A stretch of 64,000 nucleotides of DNA from Escherichia phage JEP8, in the sequence record MT764208.1. One strand, 5' to 3'. Shown here piece after piece: positions 209 through 63,122 of this stretch (position 1 is the first letter of the stretch; each line of letters opens with the position of its first letter). Below the pieces are notes generated by a model, which was given only the letters and a program-made list of their open reading frames with translations, did not search any database and was not told where the DNA came from. The position numbers and the translations under genes were made by a program.

Positions 209-370
209 CATTTTTTTACAAGCCGATCCATGTGGTCGGCTTTATTTTTATACAGTTGGTTAAAATGTAACCAAAACGAAGAAAGATCTTTAGAATAATA
301 GAAAATTTGTTTCGGTTAAAAATTAGTCAGTGCCTACGGCACGTCGCGAAGCGATATTTTGTTAACATTC

Positions 371-378
371 TATAAATA
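371..378 (+). promoter_or_regulatory. T4-type late promoter box TATAAATA
   Basis: Exact TATAAATA about 34 nt upstream of the gp36-like ATG, followed by GAGG Shine-Dalgarno. Confidence 0.55.
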
Positions 379-411
379 CTCGGAACTATAACTAATTTTT
401 GAGGTTACTTT

Positions 412-1902
412 ATGGCAGATTTGAAATATGGATCTACTGTAGGTGGATCTCCCATTTGGACGCAAGGAAACTTGACGATCCAGCCAGCAGGGGATCAGCT
501 TTTCTACAAAGGTCATAAAATCTATACCGCTTTTGATAGACCTTCGGCTACCGATTTTGATGCTGTTAGTGCATCCGAAGGTGGCACATTTCAAAAGCAA
601 GTTCATTTCGAGGAAGGTTTAAGCGTAGGTAGCGCATCGGCTGGAGAAACCAAAAAGAATGGTATCTTTAAAGGTCAGAGTGATGCTGCTAATTTTGACG
701 GTGTAAGCTGGGGTTTGCATTCATGGAAGTCAATAGGCTTTGTTAATGCCCGTGATGGCGTTATTATGGCGTATATTGACACCACAACGGGCGAATTTAA
801 GTCTAAAGGGACTATCGAAGGGACAACCATTAAAGACACAGGTCAACGCGTCTATAGCCCTGTTAATAAACCAACGAATAATGATTTAGATTTGGTGTCT
901 CGTCGCGGTGATACTCTCACAGGAACATATAATTTAAACACTGTCACTGTTAAACTATCGGTTGATTCTAAATTAATTGCAAGGGAACGTGATTTAATTA
1001 ATTTTGATGCGACTAAGATCTATTATGGTAACGTTCTTGATACGTTGGTCTTCCGAAGTAAAGATGAGCCTACCATTTTTGTTAATGGCAGAGAAGGTCG
1101 TTTTTATCACACCAATAATAAACCAACTAAAGCCGATGTTGGGCTAGGCAATGTCACCAATGATGCACAGGTTAAACGTGCTGGTGATATTATGGAAGGT
1201 AACTTGCAAGCGCCTAGAATGTTGGCGACAAACGATCCTGCTGGTCCGAATGAATTGGTTCGTTTGAGCTACTTTGAGAGAAAATCAATGGTAGCAAATC
1301 CAACCATCATTGGAAACGTTGATTGGAACACTCTTATTAATCGCGGTATCTATCGTGTGGAAAATGCTGGGTCGGGTACTAATAAACCGTCTGATAGCTA
1401 TTATAACGGCGTTTTGATGGTATATCGCCCAGAAGATGCGGTCGGTACTCGTCGAATTGTTCAGGTGTATTATCCTGAATCTATTGACCATCCGATGTGC
1501 TGGCGTTCTTGTTCTAATGAATCATGGACTGCATGGAACTATGTAGATCACCGTAAATTAGCCGATATTCGCTATGTTAACGTAACTGGCGATACCATGA
1601 CAGGACCGTTAACTGTTCCGGCTGCAAACGGTGTTAGAACGGCTAAAACTAACTATAACGGGGATAACTGTTATGCGGCGTTAAGCGGTGCTGATGGTAC
1701 TGCTATGATTCACCGCATTAGTGATATTAAAGGGACCGAAAAGCTGGGGATCACCCATGACTCAAAGGTCGTGTTTTTCCGTTCTAGAAACAATACTCAA
1801 ACCGTGGACCGCTATCAGCTTTATCATGAAGGTAATAAACCTACTCCGGCTGATGTTGGAGCGGTTCCACTTAATGCGGTGATTGATTTTGGTACTTTCT
1901 AA
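412..1902 (+). CDS. 36: long tail fibre protein gp36-like (496 aa, longer than T4 gp36)
   Basis: N-terminus MADLKYGSTVGGSPIW resembles recalled T4 gp36 MADLKVGSTTGGSVIW; sits directly before gp37. Confidence 0.7.
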   Translation: MADLKYGSTVGGSPIWTQGNLTIQPAGDQLFYKGHKIYTAFDRPSATDFDAVSASEGGTFQKQVHFEEGLSVGSASAGETKKNGIFKGQSDAANFDGVSWGLHSWKSIGFVNARDGVIMAYIDTTTGEFKSKGTIEGTTIKDTGQRVYSPVNKPTNNDLDLVSRRGDTLTGTYNLNTVTVKLSVDSKLIARERDLINFDATKIYYGNVLDTLVFRSKDEPTIFVNGREGRFYHTNNKPTKADVGLGNVTNDAQVKRAGDIMEGNLQAPRMLATNDPAGPNELVRLSYFERKSMVANPTIIGNVDWNTLINRGIYRVENAGSGTNKPSDSYYNGVLMVYRPEDAVGTRRIVQVYYPESIDHPMCWRSCSNESWTAWNYVDHRKLADIRYVNVTGDTMTGPLTVPAANGVRTAKTNYNGDNCYAALSGADGTAMIHRISDIKGTEKLGITHDSKVVFFRSRNNTQTVDRYQLYHEGNKPTPADVGAVPLNAVIDFGTF

Positions 1903-1972: not shown

Positions 1973-4741
1973 ATGGCAGATTTAAGCAGAATCCAATTTA
2001 AACGTACTAGCACTAAAGGCCGTCGACCTGATGCTGGTACGATGAATCCGGGGGAATTGGCAATCAACCTTGCGGATCAATATCTTCTTACTAAAAATGA
2101 TTCCGGTGCTATTATCAATTTAAGTTGTCCTCCGGTTTATGACCGCGATGTTACAATGGCAGGTAAGGTTAAAGGTAATAATTATATCTTAAGTAAAACC
2201 GCTAACTATCTGGAAGATCAGACAGCGCGAGATCTTAACTACTTTGGTGCTTTCCGTACCAATGGTCTTGATGGTTTTCTCGAACTCACGCTAAACGTTC
2301 CTCATTCTTCTGGTGTTCAGCATGGTCGAGGATTTACTTTCCAGTATGGACACACTGGATCGCGTGTAGAAACTTATGGCTATAATAAAGAAGGTCAAAA
2401 AGCATTTAGCTATAAAATGTATCATGAAGGTGATAAACCAACTCCAGGAGAATTGAACGTTTATAGCAAACAAGAAGTTGACCGTATGTTTGTTAAGAAC
2501 GTTAAACTTGCTACATCTCCTAGTGATATCGTTGAAGGCTATTTTAAATTAGCAACTGCAATGATTCCACAAAACGGTCTTAGCGTATTTTTCCGTATTC
2601 ATGGTGGTAACGGATATAACGTTACTGCATACGATCAAGTTGATATTGTAGAAATTGTTATTCGCAGTGGAAATGGTCGCCCTAAAGGTGTTAACGTTAT
2701 TGCATATCGCCGAAATACAAACAAATCATTTGATGTTTTGGCTGTTAATACTTCTGGTGATAACTATGATATCTATGTGAAATATCAGCGTTACACTGAT
2801 AACGTTATTGTTGAATTTGGTAAAAGTGTTGGTGTTAATCTGGTAGTTCATGACGTTCCAGATTTTGTTGCTGATCGTCCTGCTGGCGATAATGTTATTG
2901 GCGGTCGCGCGGTAACTCTTTTTAATACTGAAAATAAACGTGGTGTGTTAAGTTTTGATGATAACACACAAAACAGCTATGACATTGTTCACTTGAGTAA
3001 TGATAGGGGTACAGGACGAAAATATATTCGTAAATTCCGTAGCAACTATAATGAAATGATCTGGCATGAGACGGTTCAAGGTGCTACTTATCGTCTGGCT
3101 ACTGGTGCAACTGATGTTCAGGATATTCTAACCGTTGAATCTGTTAGCTCAATTTCTGGAACTCATAAAGGTAATATTACTTCTGGTCGTATGCTGTTAA
3201 ATGGTGGTAGTAATGTTATTACCTTGCGGCGTCCTGCTGGTCAATCCAACCATATTGCGTTTCAAGATAATCGTACTGGAGATATTACCCGTCAAGGATG
3301 GATCGGTTATGCCAATGCTAATACTAACGTTTTTGAATGGTATAGTGATGTAGGTGGCAGTTCTATTCGTCAACATATCGACGGACAGATCGAATTTCAG
3401 ACAGGTAGCATGAAGCGAGTTTATACTAACGGACAATTCATTTCATTATATGCCGATGGCTTCCGTACTGTATATGGTAACTATGGTTCATGGTGGCGAA
3501 ATGACGGTAGTAACGTTTATCTGATGAGCACAAAATCAGGCGACACTATGGGTCCGTGGAATACCTTTAGGCCGTTCATCTATAGCCTAGCCAATGGTAA
3601 CGTTACATTGGGGGGTAGTGATGCTGGCAACCATTTAATGCGTCTCAATAATGAAAGTAAACGAGTTGAAGTGAACGCAACCACACATCTTGGAAGCAGA
3701 CTGTATTGGGAACGTAACGACGAAGGATCGAAATCTGTATTCTTTGTTAAATCTTGGGGTAATGAAACTCGCGCTCAAGTGTGGGAACTTGCAGACGAAA
3801 CAAGCTATCATCTATATTCTCAGCGTGATTCTAACGGATCGATTCAATTTCGTGTTGCTGGTAGTTTGGAAACTGGAGGCCGCGCCCAGATTAATGGCGA
3901 TTTGGTCGTTACTAATGTTCTTCGTACAAATAACCAAATACAGATTTATAGAGATAACAACAAAGAGATCTGGTTTAAAGATGCTAATGGTACTAACCGT
4001 GGTGTTATCTGGGGAGATGGTGGCGGCAAAATGAGATTGCGTAACTATTCTGGTGGAGAATATGACCATGTGTTCGAAGCTGGTATGATTCGCCTTGAGC
4101 GTGGTTACGCCAATGGACAAGGTGCTGGGTTGATTCGCGGAGAAGTACAAGGTGGAGCATGGTCTGAATGGAGAACTCGCGCTGCTGGCTTATTGGTTGA
4201 CTGTCCAAATGCTCAAACTTCCGCATATAACGTATGGAAAGCGACCAAATGGGGTTTAGACCACATCGCGGCAATGGGTGTTCATGTTCCTAACGGTAAT
4301 GTTGGTAACTCTATTGCGCGTCTGCATGTTGGTGGCACTAACTTTGACTTTAACGCCTCCGGTGATTTCCAGGCAGGTCGTAACGGTAATTTTAACGATG
4401 TTTATATTCGCTCTGATGCTCGCCTTAAAATCAATAAGGAAGAGTATAAAGAGAATGCCACCGATAAAGTTAATCGCTTGACTGTGTACACCTACGATAA
4501 GGTTAAGTCTTTGACGGACCGCACTGTTATCGCTCATGAAGTTGGTATTATTGCTCAGGATCTTGAAAAAGAATTGCCGGAAGCAGTAACAACTTCTAAG
4601 ATCGGCGATCCTGATAAGCCAGAAGAGATCTTAACAATTTCTAACTCTGCTGTCAACGCTCTTTTAATTAAGGCGTTTCAGGAAATGAGCGAAGAATTGA
4701 AAGCCGTTAAAGCTGAACTAGCGGAACTTAAAAAGAATTAA
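1973..4741 (+). CDS. 37: long tail fibre distal subunit gp37 with C-terminal intramolecular chaperone (peptidase S74-type) domain
   Basis: N-terminus MADLSRIQFKRTSTKGRRPDAG..GELAINL resembles T4 gp37 MATLKQIQFKRSK..GELAINL; last 108 aa carry SDARLK..IAQDLEKELPEAV as in endosialidase/T5 fibre chaperone domains. Confidence 0.85.
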   Translation: MADLSRIQFKRTSTKGRRPDAGTMNPGELAINLADQYLLTKNDSGAIINLSCPPVYDRDVTMAGKVKGNNYILSKTANYLEDQTARDLNYFGAFRTNGLDGFLELTLNVPHSSGVQHGRGFTFQYGHTGSRVETYGYNKEGQKAFSYKMYHEGDKPTPGELNVYSKQEVDRMFVKNVKLATSPSDIVEGYFKLATAMIPQNGLSVFFRIHGGNGYNVTAYDQVDIVEIVIRSGNGRPKGVNVIAYRRNTNKSFDVLAVNTSGDNYDIYVKYQRYTDNVIVEFGKSVGVNLVVHDVPDFVADRPAGDNVIGGRAVTLFNTENKRGVLSFDDNTQNSYDIVHLSNDRGTGRKYIRKFRSNYNEMIWHETVQGATYRLATGATDVQDILTVESVSSISGTHKGNITSGRMLLNGGSNVITLRRPAGQSNHIAFQDNRTGDITRQGWIGYANANTNVFEWYSDVGGSSIRQHIDGQIEFQTGSMKRVYTNGQFISLYADGFRTVYGNYGSWWRNDGSNVYLMSTKSGDTMGPWNTFRPFIYSLANGNVTLGGSDAGNHLMRLNNESKRVEVNATTHLGSRLYWERNDEGSKSVFFVKSWGNETRAQVWELADETSYHLYSQRDSNGSIQFRVAGSLETGGRAQINGDLVVTNVLRTNNQIQIYRDNNKEIWFKDANGTNRGVIWGDGGGKMRLRNYSGGEYDHVFEAGMIRLERGYANGQGAGLIRGEVQGGAWSEWRTRAAGLLVDCPNAQTSAYNVWKATKWGLDHIAAMGVHVPNGNVGNSIARLHVGGTNFDFNASGDFQAGRNGNFNDVYIRSDARLKINKEEYKENATDKVNRLTVYTYDKVKSLTDRTVIAHEVGIIAQDLEKELPEAVTTSKIGDPDKPEEILTISNSAVNALLIKAFQEMSEELKAVKAELAELKKN

Positions 4742-4781: not shown

Positions 4782-5021
4782 ATGGTCTATAATATCGTCA
4801 TTGGCGCTTTGTCTAATTTCGGAATGAAATTATTGTCAAAGTTAATTAGTGAAAAGATGCTCACTAAAATTTTCTTCTATTGCGCTCGTCGTCTTGCGGC
4901 TTATACCAATACGCCAATTGATGATCGTTTTGTGGAAGAACTTTATAAGGAGTTTAATAAAGATCAGTCAGAAGATAGTAACGAGCAAGATAAATCTAGT
5001 GATAGTCAACTACCTAAATAA
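4782..5021 (+). CDS. small hypothetical protein (79 aa) between gp37 and holin
   Basis: AAGGAG Shine-Dalgarno 8 nt upstream of ATG; hydrophobic N-terminus, acidic C-terminus; no recognised homolog. Confidence 0.45.
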   Translation: MVYNIVIGALSNFGMKLLSKLISEKMLTKIFFYCARRLAAYTNTPIDDRFVEELYKEFNKDQSEDSNEQDKSSDSQLPK

Positions 5022-5054: not shown

Positions 5055-5711
5055 ATGCAAGTTTCTGAAAAAGGGAAAGACTTTGCTATCTCAAATGTCC
5101 TGCGCGCTATTTTCACAACTAAAAGCACGGAGTTGCTCGTACTTCGTGTTTTTGCTGCCGTCGTGTTGTCTATATTGGCATTTGTCGTTTATAGTAAAAA
5201 CGAGTTATTTGCGCTTTATAAAGAGACTCGTTATGAGACTTATGCTCACATTCTCCAGGTAGAGAAAGACCGCAATTTTGATAATGCAGCACAGGAGCAG
5301 TTACAGATAGTTCATGTGTCGGCTGATGCCGATTTTTCTGCTGTTTTTAGTTTTCGTCCGAAAAACCTAAACTATTTTGTTGATTTGGTGGCATATGAAG
5401 GAAAGCTACCACATACAATCGATGAAAAGAATTTAGGCGGATTCCCTATCAATAAAACGAGTGAAGAATATCGTAGACATCTTTTAGGTAAATCATATTT
5501 TACCGATAAAGATTTCCAGTATATTCCATCAAGAGAAAAGAAATTAGAGAATATCGATATAGGTTTCATGTATTCTTGTCCTATATTCAATCTCGATAAT
5601 GTCTATTCTGGTAGTATCGCCATTTCATGGAAGAATAAACCGGATATTGACATTGAGAATTTAGATACTCTTTGCAATCAATCTGCCAGAATCCTCGGAA
5701 GGATTAGATAA
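5055..5711 (+). CDS. t: holin t (218 aa)
   Basis: Same length as T4 holin; shared blocks EQLQIVH, SADADFSAV.SFRPKNLNYFVD, AYEGKLP, YSCPxFNLDN, ARILGR. Confidence 0.9.
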   Translation: MQVSEKGKDFAISNVLRAIFTTKSTELLVLRVFAAVVLSILAFVVYSKNELFALYKETRYETYAHILQVEKDRNFDNAAQEQLQIVHVSADADFSAVFSFRPKNLNYFVDLVAYEGKLPHTIDEKNLGGFPINKTSEEYRRHLLGKSYFTDKDFQYIPSREKKLENIDIGFMYSCPIFNLDNVYSGSIAISWKNKPDIDIENLDTLCNQSARILGRIR

Positions 5712-5716
5712 CTTAA

Positions 5717-5748
5717 AGGGGAAGCCTTTCGGCCTCCCCTTCTTTTTA
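5717..5748. terminator. bidirectional rho-independent terminator between convergent genes
   Basis: AGGGGAAGCC-TTTC-GGCCTCCCCT hairpin flanked by A-run and T-run. Confidence 0.55.
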
Positions 5749-5994
5749 TTGGCGCATAGACGCGCCTGAATCACATTTTGACGCTGTATGATGAAAACAG
5801 GTAGCGTACCAGTCATCGGCTTGTTTGTCTTCGTCAGAAAACGCGTAATTTCGTTGTACGCCGTTTTCTACTTTGACCAGTGCAATAGCTGTTTCTGGAA
5901 GATCAATCAATCGGACAAAATCACCATCTTCCCACTCTACACGAGCAATATCATAGCCCATCTCAAAGTATACAATCGCTTGTTCTAATTTCAT
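5746..5994 (-). CDS. hypothetical protein (82 aa)
   Basis: ORF track; first gene of the leftward cluster. Confidence 0.45.
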   Translation of the reverse strand: MKLEQAIVYFEMGYDIARVEWEDGDFVRLIDLPETAIALVKVENGVQRNYAFSDEDKQADDWYATCFHHTASKCDSGASMRQ

Positions 5995-7114: not shown

Positions 7115-7483
7115 TCACTTAACAAAGATTTTCTTTAATGCTTTCAGGATCGTTGCTTCCGGCGCTTCTTCCGGTGGAGGAAGCAATTCTACCACTTCCT
7201 CTTCCAACTCGATATAGTCTACCAGATATTCTACATAGAATGCAAGTGCTTCCATGAAATTAGATGCTACATCCGATTCGCCACACGCGCCCACATGCAT
7301 TGTATAAACATCACTGCGATCAAGTTTGTGGATGCTTCCCAGATAGTTTCGGTTATACCAGACTTCCCACACTTTCAGCTTTCCGGTTTTGGTTGATGTT
7401 TTATAATCGGTTTCGTAATGATGCAATTGACGTTGCAGATCATTGATAATAACACATTTTTCGTAATTGTTTTGAATTTCCAT
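7115..7483 (-). CDS. hypothetical protein (122 aa)
   Basis: GAGGA Shine-Dalgarno before ATG. Confidence 0.55.
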   Translation of the reverse strand: MEIQNNYEKCVIINDLQRQLHHYETDYKTSTKTGKLKVWEVWYNRNYLGSIHKLDRSDVYTMHVGACGESDVASNFMEALAFYVEYLVDYIELEEEVVELLPPPEEAPEATILKALKKIFVK

Positions 7484-8007: not shown

Positions 8008-8766
8008 TTACTTGCAAACGTATTGGTCTACATCAATTGCTCCACCGAATGTAGGATGACGTTTTTCAAATCGAATAGTTCCGTCGTTTGGTTCGAAAAC
8101 GGAGTATTCATATAGATCTTTCTTGCCAACATTCTTATAAAACCCGCCTTTAGTCATAACGGTTTCTTGTACGTTTGCTTTGTGTACGTTGTATTCATCA
8201 ATGTATACAAAATCAACCATCTTCCCATTTTTAATTGTTACTTTAAGATCACCCGGTTGATTTCCATATTTGGCATACAGTGGCGCTTCTTTAATTTTTG
8301 TGGAAATTCCATCTTTCATACTCCACTCATAACGAACGGTGCATTGATAGGTAAAAGTTTCGACCTTCGGTTCTTCTACCACTTTTGCTTCCTGTTTCTG
8401 TTGTTCTTCTTCAACCTTTGCAGAAGTCTCTGAATCGCTTTCTGACGAGGTTTCTTCTTTAGGTAATACATTCATCAAGTTTTGGATTTGAGCGTTATAT
8501 ACAGCCTCCAGTGGCTGAATCTGCCCGATATTGATCATTGTATCACGAACAGTTTTATTCCAGTTTCGTTGCTCTTGTTTCAGAGACGGATCAATCTTAA
8601 CAGCCTTAACATACACTTCATGAAGTTTAGAGTCCAGTGCGGAGATAGACTCATTAGCACAAATAAACTTCTCTGATTTGGTAGTAGCTTTAGCGCAATC
8701 AAAGGACGCAGCATTAGCACCGAAAGCAGTAGCGGAAAGAACGATAGCAGCGATAATGTTTTTCAT
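8008..8766 (-). CDS. secreted protein with LprI/DUF1311-like (lysozyme-inhibitor-like) N-terminal domain
   Basis: Signal peptide MKNIIAAIVLSATAFGANA then SFDCAKATT..EKFICANESISALDSKLHEVY..QRNW, the two-Cys DUF1311 pattern. Confidence 0.6.
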   Translation of the reverse strand: MKNIIAAIVLSATAFGANAASFDCAKATTKSEKFICANESISALDSKLHEVYVKAVKIDPSLKQEQRNWNKTVRDTMINIGQIQPLEAVYNAQIQNLMNVLPKEETSSESDSETSAKVEEEQQKQEAKVVEEPKVETFTYQCTVRYEWSMKDGISTKIKEAPLYAKYGNQPGDLKVTIKNGKMVDFVYIDEYNVHKANVQETVMTKGGFYKNVGKKDLYEYSVFEPNDGTIRFEKRHPTFGGAIDVDQYVCK

Positions 8767-48811: not shown

Positions 48812-49315
48812 TCAAATAATTTTCACTGGAATACTATTAACAATCTTGTATTGTACTTGATTGTCAGACCCCCGCCACGGCTTCTTCGTTGGCATATCTT
48901 TAATATAACGCCCATCGATGAACATGTCAACTGATTCTACAATTTTTCTTTGCTCATCATTCAATTGGTCAAGGGTATAACCGGACCATAGCCAAATATC
49001 TTTATTTGGCATCCATGATTTTACTTCATCGATGATCCGCTGTACACCCTTTAAATTGCGTTTATACAGTGGATCGCCACCTAAGAATGTTAGCCCCTGA
49101 ATAAAATCAGGACTAAGCAGATCCAGAATCAATCCCATTGTATCATCGGTGAATGGTTCCCCGTTCTTAGGATTGAGTATACTGGAATTAAAACAACCAT
49201 CACATGCGTGTGAACATCCGGTAACGTAAAGGGAGACTCTCACTCCCTCACCGTTAACCATATCACAATCTTTAATATCGGCATAGCGTAGTTTGCCGTA
49301 TGTATCAGAACTCAT
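48812..49315 (-). CDS. nrdG: anaerobic ribonucleotide reductase activating protein NrdG (radical SAM)
   Basis: D.VNG.G.RV.L.VTGC.H.C.GC.N, GLT..GGDPLY, DIWLW.GY, KPWRGSDNQ match recalled T4 NrdG. Confidence 0.85.
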   Translation of the reverse strand: MSSDTYGKLRYADIKDCDMVNGEGVRVSLYVTGCSHACDGCFNSSILNPKNGEPFTDDTMGLILDLLSPDFIQGLTFLGGDPLYKRNLKGVQRIIDEVKSWMPNKDIWLWSGYTLDQLNDEQRKIVESVDMFIDGRYIKDMPTKKPWRGSDNQVQYKIVNSIPVKII

Positions 49316-60305: not shown

Positions 60306-60736
60306 TTTGTGATCTCCTTATACTCAACACACCATAAGCGGGTAGCCCATGATAAACGCTCATAACGCTGGCAGAAATCGGACCATAGATATTGTGTACC
60401 GTCTTGCATGGTTGAAATATGCGTTTTCTCACCTACTTTCACGAAAGAAGTATTCGATTTTGTGATCTCGACCGGAGTATATCCGAAAGCGGGTTCCAAG
60501 CCAACATCTGAACTAAATGCCAATTTAACAGAATTTGTTTTTCTGACCGCTGTCCGGTTTCCTTCTGGGTACAGCACAGCAGGTTTAGCGCCTAAGCGGA
60601 TAAACTCAGTGTTTTTAATAAACAGAATATCATGATAACCGTCATATTCCGACACTTCCATAGTAACAGGAAAATCGACATGTTCTAAACCTGGTAGATC
60701 TCGCATATCATGAAAGGTCGCCATCAACTTTTTCAT
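60302..60736 (-). CDS. hypothetical protein (144 aa)
   Basis: Trimmed to ATG after GAGGAA. Confidence 0.45.
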   Translation of the reverse strand: MKKLMATFHDMRDLPGLEHVDFPVTMEVSEYDGYHDILFIKNTEFIRLGAKPAVLYPEGNRTAVRKTNSVKLAFSSDVGLEPAFGYTPVEITKSNTSFVKVGEKTHISTMQDGTQYLWSDFCQRYERLSWATRLWCVEYKEITK

Positions 60737-60746
60737 TCTATATTCC

Positions 60747-60944
60747 TCACTCTTCTGTTTCATTTCTTTTATATGGTACTATAACAGGATTAATACAGCA
60801 AGCACCAATTACGTTATGAGCACCACAATTTAAGCATTTATAATCATGGAACTTATTAAGGAATCGACCAAACTCATAACCGACTAGCGCCGCATGTACT
60901 TGAGTCTCGATCTCATCCATATCAGCCAATGTTTTAACCTTCAT
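60747..60944 (-). CDS. hypothetical Cys-rich protein (65 aa)
   Basis: Trimmed to ATG after GAGGA; CLNCGAHNVIGACC. Confidence 0.45.
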   Translation of the reverse strand: MKVKTLADMDEIETQVHAALVGYEFGRFLNKFHDYKCLNCGAHNVIGACCINPVIVPYKRNETEE

Positions 60945-60954
60945 AATATAATCC

Positions 60955-61245
60955 TCAAATTGTAGTTTTGCGAAGATGGTCATTACATGCTTTTAATGCA
61001 TCGGTCGCGGTGTCATAGCGAGTATTATCATAGCACCAATAACCATCTGTCAACTGATAAATTAATCCATCCTTTTTAGCTTCGATGAAAGACAATTCTT
61101 TGAAAGTTTCTACTTTCTTTGCTGATACTCCACGGTCACGTCGCTTATACAGTTTAGCTAAAATGCGTTCAGCTTGTTCCTCTTTATCTCCAGACAGATC
61201 CCAGATGATGTTTCGGATATGCTTGATTAATTGTTCAGTGGTCAT
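60955..61245 (-). CDS. hypothetical protein (96 aa)
   Basis: AAGGAGA Shine-Dalgarno. Confidence 0.5.
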   Translation of the reverse strand: MTTEQLIKHIRNIIWDLSGDKEEQAERILAKLYKRRDRGVSAKKVETFKELSFIEAKKDGLIYQLTDGYWCYDNTRYDTATDALKACNDHLRKTTI

Positions 61246-61274
61246 CTTTGATTCTCCTTAGTTGGTATGCGTGC

Positions 61275-61302
61275 ATTATAGCATTGTGATTATCTTTGTC
61301 AA
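61275..61302 (-). promoter_or_regulatory. sigma70-like early promoter (-35 TTGACA, -10 TATAAT)
   Basis: 16 nt spacer. Confidence 0.45.
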
Positions 61303-61307
61303 CACCC

Positions 61308-61339
61308 AAAAACAAAAAAGGCTACCCCGAAGGATAGCC
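61308..61339 (-). terminator. rho-independent terminator after the gp38-like gene
   Basis: GGCTACCCC..GGATAGCC hairpin followed by T-run on the - strand. Confidence 0.45.
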
Positions 61340-61346
61340 CATAAAA

Positions 61347-62126
61347 TTACACGCGAGCACCGTAGATCGTGCCTACTTTATCCCAGCGAGGGGCATTGCC
61401 AGTAACAGCCTTACCAGCCGCTCCGCCATTATATTCCGATCCCCGTCCACGGATATTACATTTACCACCAGCGCCACCAGCATCACCACCGTTACCGCCA
61501 TTATATACACCGTTGACAGACCCTTTACCTGGCGCGGAAATAGTACCAGCAGTAGCACCCTGTTCCATTTTAGCAGACCCACCAGCAGCGCCAAATGGAC
61601 GACCGCCGCCACCTCCAAAAGTCAATTTCATTTGTGGAAAAGGAGACCAGTATCCTCCGCCACCACCACCACCGCCACCGCAAATAGCGCCGTTATTTGT
61701 GATGCGTAAGCGTGTGCCTATACCGTTGTTAATTGCATTACCACCAGCACCACCAGCGGAGTTATTGCCACCATTACCACCACGCCCCCAAACATGAACA
61801 CCTGCATTAATGATCAATGTTACATATTCGTTTGTTAACGAGCTAGGGAAGTCAAGACAAGGAACGCCAGTAGATTGGGAAACAATATTACCCGTGATAG
61901 TAATTACTACCGGAGTAGATCCTTGTGCTTTCATCCAGTTAATAAGAGTGTCTTTATTGTAAGAGTTACTAGCACCAATGCTATAATGAATCTCTTTAGA
62001 GCGTCCGACCATTGCCGACATATACGCCGGACGACCTAAGCGTACAGCTTGCATTGCGGCGCTCATCCACCGTTGACCAGTCTCGGACACCGCAGATGAT
62101 CCTACCCATCCAGAAGATATTGCCAT
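61347..62126 (-). CDS. 38: gp38-like tail-fibre adhesin (T2-type receptor-recognition protein with glycine-rich motifs), ectopic
   Basis: N-terminus GWVGSSAVSETGQRWMS resembles recalled T2 gp38 GWIGSSAVNETGQRWMS; GRGGNGG, GGGGGGGGGY, GGGGGRPFG glycine-rich motifs; about 259 aa. Confidence 0.7.
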   Translation of the reverse strand: MAISSGWVGSSAVSETGQRWMSAAMQAVRLGRPAYMSAMVGRSKEIHYSIGASNSYNKDTLINWMKAQGSTPVVITITGNIVSQSTGVPCLDFPSSLTNEYVTLIINAGVHVWGRGGNGGNNSAGGAGGNAINNGIGTRLRITNNGAICGGGGGGGGGYWSPFPQMKLTFGGGGGRPFGAAGGSAKMEQGATAGTISAPGKGSVNGVYNGGNGGDAGGAGGKCNIRGRGSEYNGGAAGKAVTGNAPRWDKVGTIYGARV

Positions 62127-62142
62127 AAAATTTCCTCACAAG

Positions 62143-62162
62143 AAAAGCCCCAATTAAGGGGC
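62143..62162 (-). terminator. hairpin GCCCC-AATTAA-GGGGC plus T-run upstream of the gp38-like gene
   Basis: 5 bp GC stem. Confidence 0.4.
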
Positions 62163-62180
62163 ATTGATTGATAATATTAC

Positions 62181-62402
62181 TTAGATGACCTCTGCTTCAC
62201 CATCCAGGAAGAAAGACCATGTTTTGTTAGGATAGCGAAGCGCCCATGATTCAGCAGTTTTAACACCAGCTTCGAACAATTGACGGCTGGTTACTTTAGC
62301 CATACCATCTTCGATGGCAACGTTTTCAATAATCATCGGGTACTTAGCGCCACGCATGAAACCGAAACCAGCGGAAGATTTGATAATTTTAACAGTTGCC
62401 AT
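62181..62402 (-). CDS. hypothetical protein (73 aa)
   Basis: AGGAGA Shine-Dalgarno. Confidence 0.5.
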   Translation of the reverse strand: MATVKIIKSSAGFGFMRGAKYPMIIENVAIEDGMAKVTSRQLFEAGVKTAESWALRYPNKTWSFFLDGEAEVI

Positions 62403-62490
62403 TTTTGATTCTCCTAGAAAGTGTATCTCGTTTCGATGTGTGTATTATGCAATAACACCGGAACGCTGTCAACACTTTCTAAGAAAAATT

Positions 62491-62775
62491 TTAAACTAAT
62501 CGAATGTAGCCCAAAATTTCAGCACTTTTAGCCAGATCTAAAATTTCCCATTCAAGATCGCCGTAGTCATAATTTGCAACCATCAACTGACCATTTTTCA
62601 TGCAGCAATCATGAGAGAAAATTTGCCCCGCATAAACTACGATAGTGATAAACTTTCCTGATTCTGGCGGTGTGGAAGACAAAGCGACCATATGACCATT
62701 CAGCTTAGTCACCAGTGATGGAACAATAAAATTCGGGCTTACCTTAATACCGTTAAATTCGTTTGTGTCTTTCAT
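62491..62775 (-). CDS. hypothetical protein (94 aa)
   Basis: GAGGT Shine-Dalgarno; ATGA overlap. Confidence 0.5.
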   Translation of the reverse strand: MKDTNEFNGIKVSPNFIVPSLVTKLNGHMVALSSTPPESGKFITIVVYAGQIFSHDCCMKNGQLMVANYDYGDLEWEILDLAKSAEILGYIRLV

Positions 62776-63122
62776 GCCAGACCTCGCAAAACACTAATAG
62801 CATAATCATGCTGGTTATTCATAATATCAATTGCATTGTGATAACGAGCTAAACCATCAAGGATAAATTCTTGTTTATCCTGTTTCAGTTTGGTATCACG
62901 CGCAGCCATAAGAGCATCGAGAACAGGTCCAAAGTGATTATCTAATTCATCTTCGGTTGCAATGTTTCCTATTGCCTCGTCGATCCGTGATTCTAATGCT
63001 TGCTTTTCGTTGATCACTTGCTGGGTATATTCCAACACATCAAGAATATCGCGGGTAACGTCGCCGTGATAAGGTATTCCCGCATGAAGATGATCAATTA
63101 ATCGCTGAATATCGATGTTCAT
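62772..63122 (-). CDS. hypothetical protein (116 aa)
   Basis: AGAGGAGGG Shine-Dalgarno. Confidence 0.5.
   Translation of the reverse strand: MNIDIQRLIDHLHAGIPYHGDVTRDILDVLEYTQQVINEKQALESRIDEAIGNIATEDELDNHFGPVLDALMAARDTKLKQDKQEFILDGLARYHNAIDIMNNQHDYAISVLRGLA

Follow-up and report, generated by a model that had tools for sequence, protein, structure and literature searches.

A 259-aa open reading frame (ORF), encoded far from the tail-fibre genes, is very probably gene 38 of a Krischvirus. Its product would be the sole receptor-binding adhesin and would cap each of the long tail fibres, in a role left unchanged by the position of the gene. The ORF lies in the 64 kb stretch of DNA that was analysed, referred to throughout as the window. 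Judged by the relatives of the gp38 region, the phage is a Krischvirus, a T-even relative resembling RB49 and GEC-3S. The gene and its two domains have the following coordinates.

61347..62126, minus strand: gene 38, long-tail-fibre tip adhesin, 259 aa plus stop codon, ATG start (matches to GP38, Gp38_N, phrog_2056 and 6F45_D).

61851..62126, minus strand: N-terminal gp37-attachment domain of gp38, aa 1–92, with Trp7 and Trp20 (Gp38_N; alignment with the S16 tryptophans).

61350..61850, minus strand: C-terminal receptor-binding domain of gp38, aa 93–259, with glycine-rich motifs and variable segments (motifs; local drop in identity).

The predicted protein matches the complete Pfam GP38 profile (PF05268, positions 1–218 of 218) with an E value of 5.4e-73 and a score of 245.9 bits, the curated cut-off being 25 bits. 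Residues 1–40 are covered by Gp38_N (PF21721; E = 3.9e-18, 65.6 bits). The best-matching orthologous group is annotated 'tail fiber protein; host specificity' (phrog_2056; E = 4.9e-102). These matches support the earlier note, made from the sequence alone, which had placed the ORF in the T2/T6-type gp38 adhesin family. Database similarity to gp38 adhesins also extends to a known structure. Thus, gp38 of phage S16 (PDB 6F45_D) aligns with the protein from end to end (aa 1–257, E = 2e-50). Trp7 and Trp20 align with both S16 gp38 tryptophans, which are the prongs that insert into gp37 (PMC7917993). The N-terminus and the three glycine-rich motifs quoted in the note are all found in the ORF; GWVGSSAVSETGQRWMS is at aa 6, GRGGNGG at aa 114, GGGGGGGGGY at aa 150 and GGGGGRPFG at aa 171. 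Glycine accounts for 23% of residues. In comparisons with gp38 of T6, JK1 and STP4-a, the glycine-rich motifs (aa 114, 150, 171 and beyond) are invariant and the intervening segments vary. By these alignments, the ORF is a full-length gp38 adhesin of the T2/T6/S16 type. A proline-rich 142-aa ORF on the other strand (61369..61797, plus) was not accepted as a gene, since it arises from GGN glycine codons read in reverse, as CCN.

By locus convention, which is not a trait of the protein family, genes 37 and 38 are immediate neighbours in the late tail-fibre operon, with gene 38 downstream. This is not so here. The gp38 gene is on the opposite strand, 56.6 kb from the gene 37 stop codon, and the ectopic position proposed previously, at about 57 kb from gp37, is borne out. 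The tail-fibre module is arranged as follows.

412..1902, plus strand: gene 36, small distal tail-fibre subunit (hinge connector), 496 aa (phrog_16472, E = 0; phrog_1425, E = 7e-55).

1973..4741, plus strand: gene 37, distal long-tail-fibre subunit and gp38 partner, 922 aa (phrog_1699, E = 6.4e-179; Pfam Gp34_trimer and Peptidase_S74).

4782..5021, plus strand: 79-aa ORF in the canonical gene 38 slot (phrog_402, unknown function, E = 5.2e-20).

5055..5711, plus strand: holin gene t, which closes the tail-fibre module, as in T6, JK1 and STP4-a (Pfam Phage_holin_T, E = 4.5e-61; synteny).

The gene 36 product also matches Pfam Phage_T4_gp36, at a level (E = 2.6e-4, 21.4 bits) below the 26-bit cut-off. 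The slot after gene 37 is held by an ORF unrelated to gene 38, as the sequence had first suggested; it belongs to phrog_402, and a Pfam profile search returned no family for it. The 79-aa product is hydrophobic at its N-terminus, ends in an acidic tail and contains a YTNTPIDDRF motif. Located between gp37 and holin t, its gene is apparently part of the late tail-fibre transcript. It may be the 'Dc5' ORF of pseudo-T-evens (PMC6832132).

Both the displaced gene 38 and the small ORF in its slot are already known. Displacement of RB49 gene 38 was reported by Desplats 2002, as cited in Trojet 2011 (PMC3157838), and a small ORF occupies the slot after gene 37 of RB49 (PMC3157838). A preprint describes Krischvirus gp38 as being ~55 kb from gp37 (10.64898/2026.04.02.716166). 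The arrangement has been in print since 2002, and again in 2011 and 2026. For Krischvirus annotation and host-range prediction, the implication is that the adhesin should be sought ~55 kb from the tail-fibre operon.

A gp37 with its own chaperone domain might seem at odds with a gp38 adhesin. The S74 domain recorded for gp37 in the earlier note was recovered, with Peptidase_S74 matching aa 814–873 (E = 1.3e-11), and delimits one further feature.

4412..4741, plus strand: gp37 intramolecular chaperone, aa 814–922 plus stop codon (start of Peptidase_S74 at aa 814; motif alignment; predicted autocleavage between R813 and S814).

The motif DVYIR^SDARLKI, at R813/S814 of the window gp37, aligns with gp37 of T6, JK1 and STP4-a. 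Over its last 200 residues, the protein is 55% identical to T6 gp37, with the common block DVYIRSD.RLK. The S16 gp37 cleavage site, DLNVS^SDRRIKK, has been aligned to DVYIR^SDGRLKI of T2-like phages (PMC7917993). By analogy, we infer that the window gp37 chaperone is cleaved within its DVYIR^SDARLKI motif.

The same note had further supposed that S74-bearing gp37 proteins fold without gp38. This is contradicted by three comparison loci in which gp38 directly follows gene 37, namely those of T6, Tequatrovirus JK1 and the S16-like Gelderlandvirus STP4-a. In each case gp37 carries Peptidase_S74 (E = 6.6e-10, 3e-15 and 8.5e-14 respectively) and gp38 is adjacent. Autocleavage of the chaperone is known to expose the gp38 docking surface (PMC7917993; PMC9569957). 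In RB49, gp37 has a self-cleaving chaperone and a gp38 monomer is found at each fibre tip (PMC9569957). Because T6, JK1 and STP4-a carry both proteins, and because chaperone cleavage exposes the docking surface, the S74 chaperone and gp38 belong together. The paradox of both co-occurring disappears. In annotation, an S74 domain on gp37 should lead one to expect a gp38 cap, not to regard it as dispensable.

These comparisons suggest a mechanism at the fibre tip. Trimerisation of gp37 would be aided by its own C-terminal S74 intramolecular chaperone, a domain that is itself present. The chaperone would then be removed by autocleavage at DVYIR^SDARLKI, as homology with S16 and T2-like gp37 predicts. 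The docking surface would thus be exposed, and the N-terminal domain of gp38 would insert via Trp7 and Trp20; these residues are conserved, and the mode of binding is taken from 6F45. The glycine-rich C-terminal domain would present variable loops that, in this phage, are predicted to bind outer-membrane proteins or O-antigen. RB49 gp38 recognises O-antigens and OmpA, and RB49 mutants able to grow on new hosts have E230K, or E230K and Y231S, in gp38 (PMC9569957). Within the genus, the attachment domain is frozen, matched to the Krischvirus gp37 tip. Conversely, recombination exchanges the receptor-binding half, and Tequatrovirus alleles are among those that take part. The docking geometry of gp38 on the window gp37 is assumed by analogy. 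Before the cleavage site, the gp37 tip is only weakly similar to that of S16; most of the match (E = 1.2e-4) falls in the chaperone. On the grounds of RB49 genetics and homology, gp38 is expected to be present in the virion; a literature search found no Krischvirus virion proteomics or mass spectrometry.

The S16 gp37–gp38 complex (PDB 6F45) resembles the window pair in having both tryptophan prongs, polyglycine motifs and a gp37 with a C-terminal chaperone, cleavage of which is predicted in the window. Unlike the window, S16-like genomes have gene 38 directly after gene 37; the gp38 identity is ~49% and the gp37 tips are barely similar. The T2/T6 gp38 proteins of Tequatrovirus also share two domains, glycine-rich motifs separated by hypervariable segments, an S74-bearing gp37 and C-terminal exchange. 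However, gene 38 of T2/T6 adjoins gene 37 in the late operon, whereas the window gene is 56.6 kb away, on the early-gene strand and without a late box. The T4 protein has the same gene number and a role in gp37 tip maturation, but is an assembly chaperone and not an adhesin. The adhesin function of T4 is carried by gp37 itself, in an extension at its C-terminus, and g38 codes for a chaperone of that fibre (PMC3157838). The window gp38, in contrast, has a full adhesin domain.

The distance between genes 37 and 38, together with the folding chaperone of gp37, could also mean that gp38 is a second or alternative receptor-binding module, working beside a gp37 tip that binds receptors itself. This was among the readings put forward previously. 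However, an S74-bearing gp37 is the normal gp38 partner in T6, JK1 and STP4-a. Once cleaved, the window gp37 would have no T4-type needle domain, and it has no other tip. Moreover, gp38 gave one match per genome in the Krischvirus records, and host-range mutations of RB49 map to gp38 (PMC9569957). A second module is thus highly unlikely, and a single adhesin at the tip of gp37 is preferred.

The surroundings of gene 38 are those of an early gene. The elements listed here were identified on the same strand.

62444..62472, minus strand: sigma-70-type early promoter TTGACA-17-CATAAT, the nearest upstream of gp38 (scan, 11 of 12 positions; GEC-3S promoter annotation; conserved).

62181..62402, minus strand: 73-aa ORF directly upstream of gp38, in the same transcription unit (phrog_7345, E = 4.9e-34; without a Pfam family).

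62147..62162, minus strand: hairpin GCCCC-ttaatt-GGGGC plus TTTTCTT, between the 73-aa ORF and gp38 (terminator scan; GEC-3S terminator annotation; invariant).

62134..62137, minus strand: Shine-Dalgarno sequence GAGG, 7 nt before the gp38 ATG (read from the sequence; invariant in five Krischvirus genomes).

61275..61340, minus strand: PeSL-type element after the gp38 stop codon, consisting of a 9-bp hairpin and T-run, then a perfect TTGACA-16-TATAAT (scan, 12 of 12 positions; conserved).

The promoter at 62472–62444 sits before the 73-aa ORF; none was found between the hairpin at 62162–62147 and the gp38 ribosome binding site. That hairpin has a G+C stem of 5 bp and a minimum free energy of −11.5 kcal/mol for its 41-nt context (z = −2.7). 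It is probably a leaky terminator or attenuator. The downstream hairpin (61340–61319) is stronger, at −14.7 kcal/mol (z = −3.5), and the TTGACA-16-TATAAT promoter that follows serves the next early gene. The initial description of gp38 as lying between terminators, with an early-type promoter region upstream, therefore stands: a hairpin and T-run occur on both sides, and TTGACA-17-CATAAT is upstream.

The hairpin and promoter after gp38 fit the definition of a PeSL given for RB49 and phi1 (PMC2839356; PMC4122927). As in the RB49/phi1 cassettes (Arbiol 2010), a hairpin is combined with a perfect sigma-70 promoter in a hyperplastic region. The two boundaries of gene 38 differ in this respect. 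On the downstream side there is a stem-loop and a sigma-70 promoter. On the upstream side, unlike a PeSL, there is a hairpin only, and the promoter is one ORF further up. Gene 38 is not discussed in PMC2839356 or PMC4122927.

The displaced locus is conserved across the genus. A 2.5 kb region around gp38 has matches in 76 phage records, of which at least 43 cover at least 80% of it. The best nucleotide matches are to Shigella phage Sf20 (98.4%) and GEC-3S (97.6%), and RB49 matches at 94.2%; all of the named top matches are Krischvirus genomes or close relatives. GEC-3S has the same gene between the same small ORFs; its annotation places a terminator at either end of the gene, with sigma-70 promoters close by. 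RB49, GEC-3S, ECD7, Cognac49, JSE and phi1 share the displaced gp38 locus and its flanks with the window. They also share the 79-aa ORF after gene 37 and have an N-terminal gp38 domain that is 100% identical, and differ from the window only in the receptor-binding allele (77% amino acid identity for RB49 and 96% for GEC-3S). Among the window, GEC-3S, RB49, kaaroe and ECD7, identity is 98% over the 410 nt upstream of gp38 and 96% over the 170 nt downstream. Both flanking hairpins and both flanking promoters are invariant in these five genomes.

A sliding comparison of Krischvirus genomes over positions 60500–63000 gave 94–100% identity outside two places, an indel at 60756 and a block at ~61371–61850. 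The block corresponds to gp38 aa ~93–252 and here identity falls to 47–86% per 100 nt. Identities of the two gp38 domains to those of the window are as follows.

GEC-3S (Krischvirus): aa 1–92, 100%; aa 93–259, 96%.

RB49, kaaroe and ECD7 (Krischvirus): aa 1–92, 100%; aa 93–259, 75–80% (RB49, 77%).

JK1 (Tequatrovirus): aa 1–92, 79%; aa 93–259, 90.4% (amino acid) and 81% (nucleotide).

T6 (Tequatrovirus): aa 1–92, 42%; aa 93–259, 71%.

Whole gp38 is 99.2% identical to a protein of phage GoldenSnicker. The receptor-binding half is closer to the Tequatrovirus JK1 allele (90.4%) than to the RB49 allele (77%). Elsewhere, the window and JK1 are 48% identical in holin t and ~40% identical, in patches, in gp37. 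The gp38 gene is 78% identical to JK1 at the nucleotide level. JK1 provides the closest allele outside Krischvirus, and the match runs from codon 5 to the stop codon, with no homology in the flanks. Because the match is confined to the ORF, there is no trace of a transfer junction.

In all Krischvirus genomes examined, gp38 is present at the displaced site, without presence/absence polymorphism, and only the C-terminal half varies. Since the locus, its flanks and the N-terminal domain are 96–100% identical across RB49, kaaroe, ECD7 and GEC-3S, relocation of gene 38 most likely predates the sequenced members of Krischvirus. As far as these alignments show, the moving part today is the receptor-binding half, which crosses genus boundaries, and not the gene or the locus. 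Exchange of the receptor-binding halves of T-even adhesins has been described (Trojet 2011, PMC3157838; preprint 10.64898/2026.04.02.716166).

These data bear on the suggestion that the whole of gene 38 is a recent host-range cassette, placed in the early region by PeSL-mediated recombination. The PeSL directly downstream and the hairpin upstream could be read in this way, as could the closeness of the receptor-binding half to a Tequatrovirus allele. Horizontal acquisition in the ancestor of the genus is also raised in preprint 10.64898/2026.04.02.716166. Against recent transfer, the identity of 96–100% noted above extends from the N-terminal domain into the locus and flanks, and the exchangeable segment is aa ~93–252 only. 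Homology to JK1 ends at the ends of the ORF and is 78% at the nucleotide level. A recently transferred cassette, as first envisaged, fits poorly with a locus and flanks that are 96–98% identical in RB49, kaaroe, ECD7 and GEC-3S and a region found in at least 43 records. We consider it very improbable, and favour an old relocation of gene 38 with continuing exchange of its receptor-binding half.

The indel at 60756 is of the single-ORF kind attributed to PeSL recombination. An extra ORF of ~220 bp is carried at this point by ECD7 (locus positions 248..466), E26, PHB13, Makalu phages and others, and is absent from the window, RB49 and GEC-3S.

Late promoters of RB49 are reported to have the sequence (T/A)ATAAATA, and RB49 is reported to lack motA and middle promoters (PMC1524935). 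The window contains a single late promoter of this type.

371..378, plus strand: TATAAATA late promoter, 34 nt before gene 36 (sole copy in the window; serves genes 36 and 37, the 79-aa ORF and t).

A consensus scan of the whole 64 kb window, which a non-canonical late promoter could escape, found neither TATAAATA nor ATAAATA on the gp38 strand, in agreement with the initial remark that gp38 has no late box. Counting both strands, ATAAATA occurs once in the window, compared with an expectation of 23.2 ± 4.7. As a control, we used 30 kb of GEC-3S. Here, ATAAATA is found 20–45 nt upstream of rI (three copies), 57A, gp3, gp4, gp53 and others, on both strands. Because it is placed before these late genes, ATAAATA is a valid late-gene marker. 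In GEC-3S, the nearest late boxes on the gp38 strand are those of rI, ~2.6 kb upstream of gp38 and separated from it by two hairpins.

That ATAAATA is depleted ~23-fold in the window implies that stray late promoters are strongly selected against in the early region. The rI cluster is unusually dense, with three copies of ATAAATA within ~90 nt upstream of rI (GEC-3S 49086..49173; locus positions 7200..7287, minus strand). It would fall ~700 nt past the end of the window; on the gp38 strand, no other late-type signals lie closer.

Gene 38 is most likely reached by transcription from the sigma-70 promoter at 62472–62444 that reads through the weak 5-bp hairpin. Long late transcripts from the rI promoters ~2.6 kb upstream may contribute. 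Two other regulatory features were considered. A MotA middle promoter was rejected, as inspection by eye of the 280 nt upstream of gp38 revealed no Mot box that was both convincing and correctly spaced; no asiA- or motA-like gene was found between t and gene 52. Protection of the gp38 mRNA from RegB was also dropped. The gp38 Shine-Dalgarno sequence is GAGG, and promoter-proximal neighbours have the RegB target GGAG, but gp38 is not distinctive; among 97 minus-strand ORFs, 24 have GGAG and 35 have GAGG only.

Early-gene orientation and neighbourhood, and the absence of a late box, might indicate a repurposed gp38 homologue that acts early and outside the virion, in superinfection exclusion for example, or solely as an assembly factor. 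Repurposing, as proposed earlier, is extremely unlikely. The adhesin is full-length, its attachment prongs are intact, none of its glycine-rich motifs is missing and its loops diversify in the way typical of receptor contacts. Once cleaved, gp37 would have no other candidate tip protein, and RB49 host-range mutants, which gain hosts by point mutations, map to the gp38 gene (PMC9569957).

With gp38 taken as the tip adhesin, a tentative and somewhat doubtful extension is that the adhesin has left the late regulon. It would be made early from the sigma-70 promoter, via the leaky hairpin, ahead of its partner gp37. Placed between invariant regulatory flanks in a hyperplastic region, the gene would have a receptor-binding half that is readily exchanged as a host-range segment and held in common with other T-even genera. 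The exchange of this half is largely known already from Trojet 2011 (PMC3157838), and the residual novelty is limited to the timing of adhesin expression only. A literature search found no Krischvirus transcriptome, and the timing of gp38 expression was not addressed in the work retrieved. Such timing would inform how strictly T-even phages need late expression of structural genes.

Two further genes in the window gave matches of interest. The position immediately following holin t, occupied by asiA in T4/T6-type genomes, holds an 82-aa ORF (5746..5994, minus strand) that matches the Pfam Tad2-like family (Thoeris anti-defense 2; E = 2.4e-6; score 28.4 bits, cut-off 25). By this match, it may be an anti-defence gene. 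In the early region, a 252-aa ORF (8008..8766, minus strand) carries a lysozyme-inhibitor domain of the LprI family, matched with an E value of 7.7e-6 and a score of 26.7 bits, the cut-off being 22.
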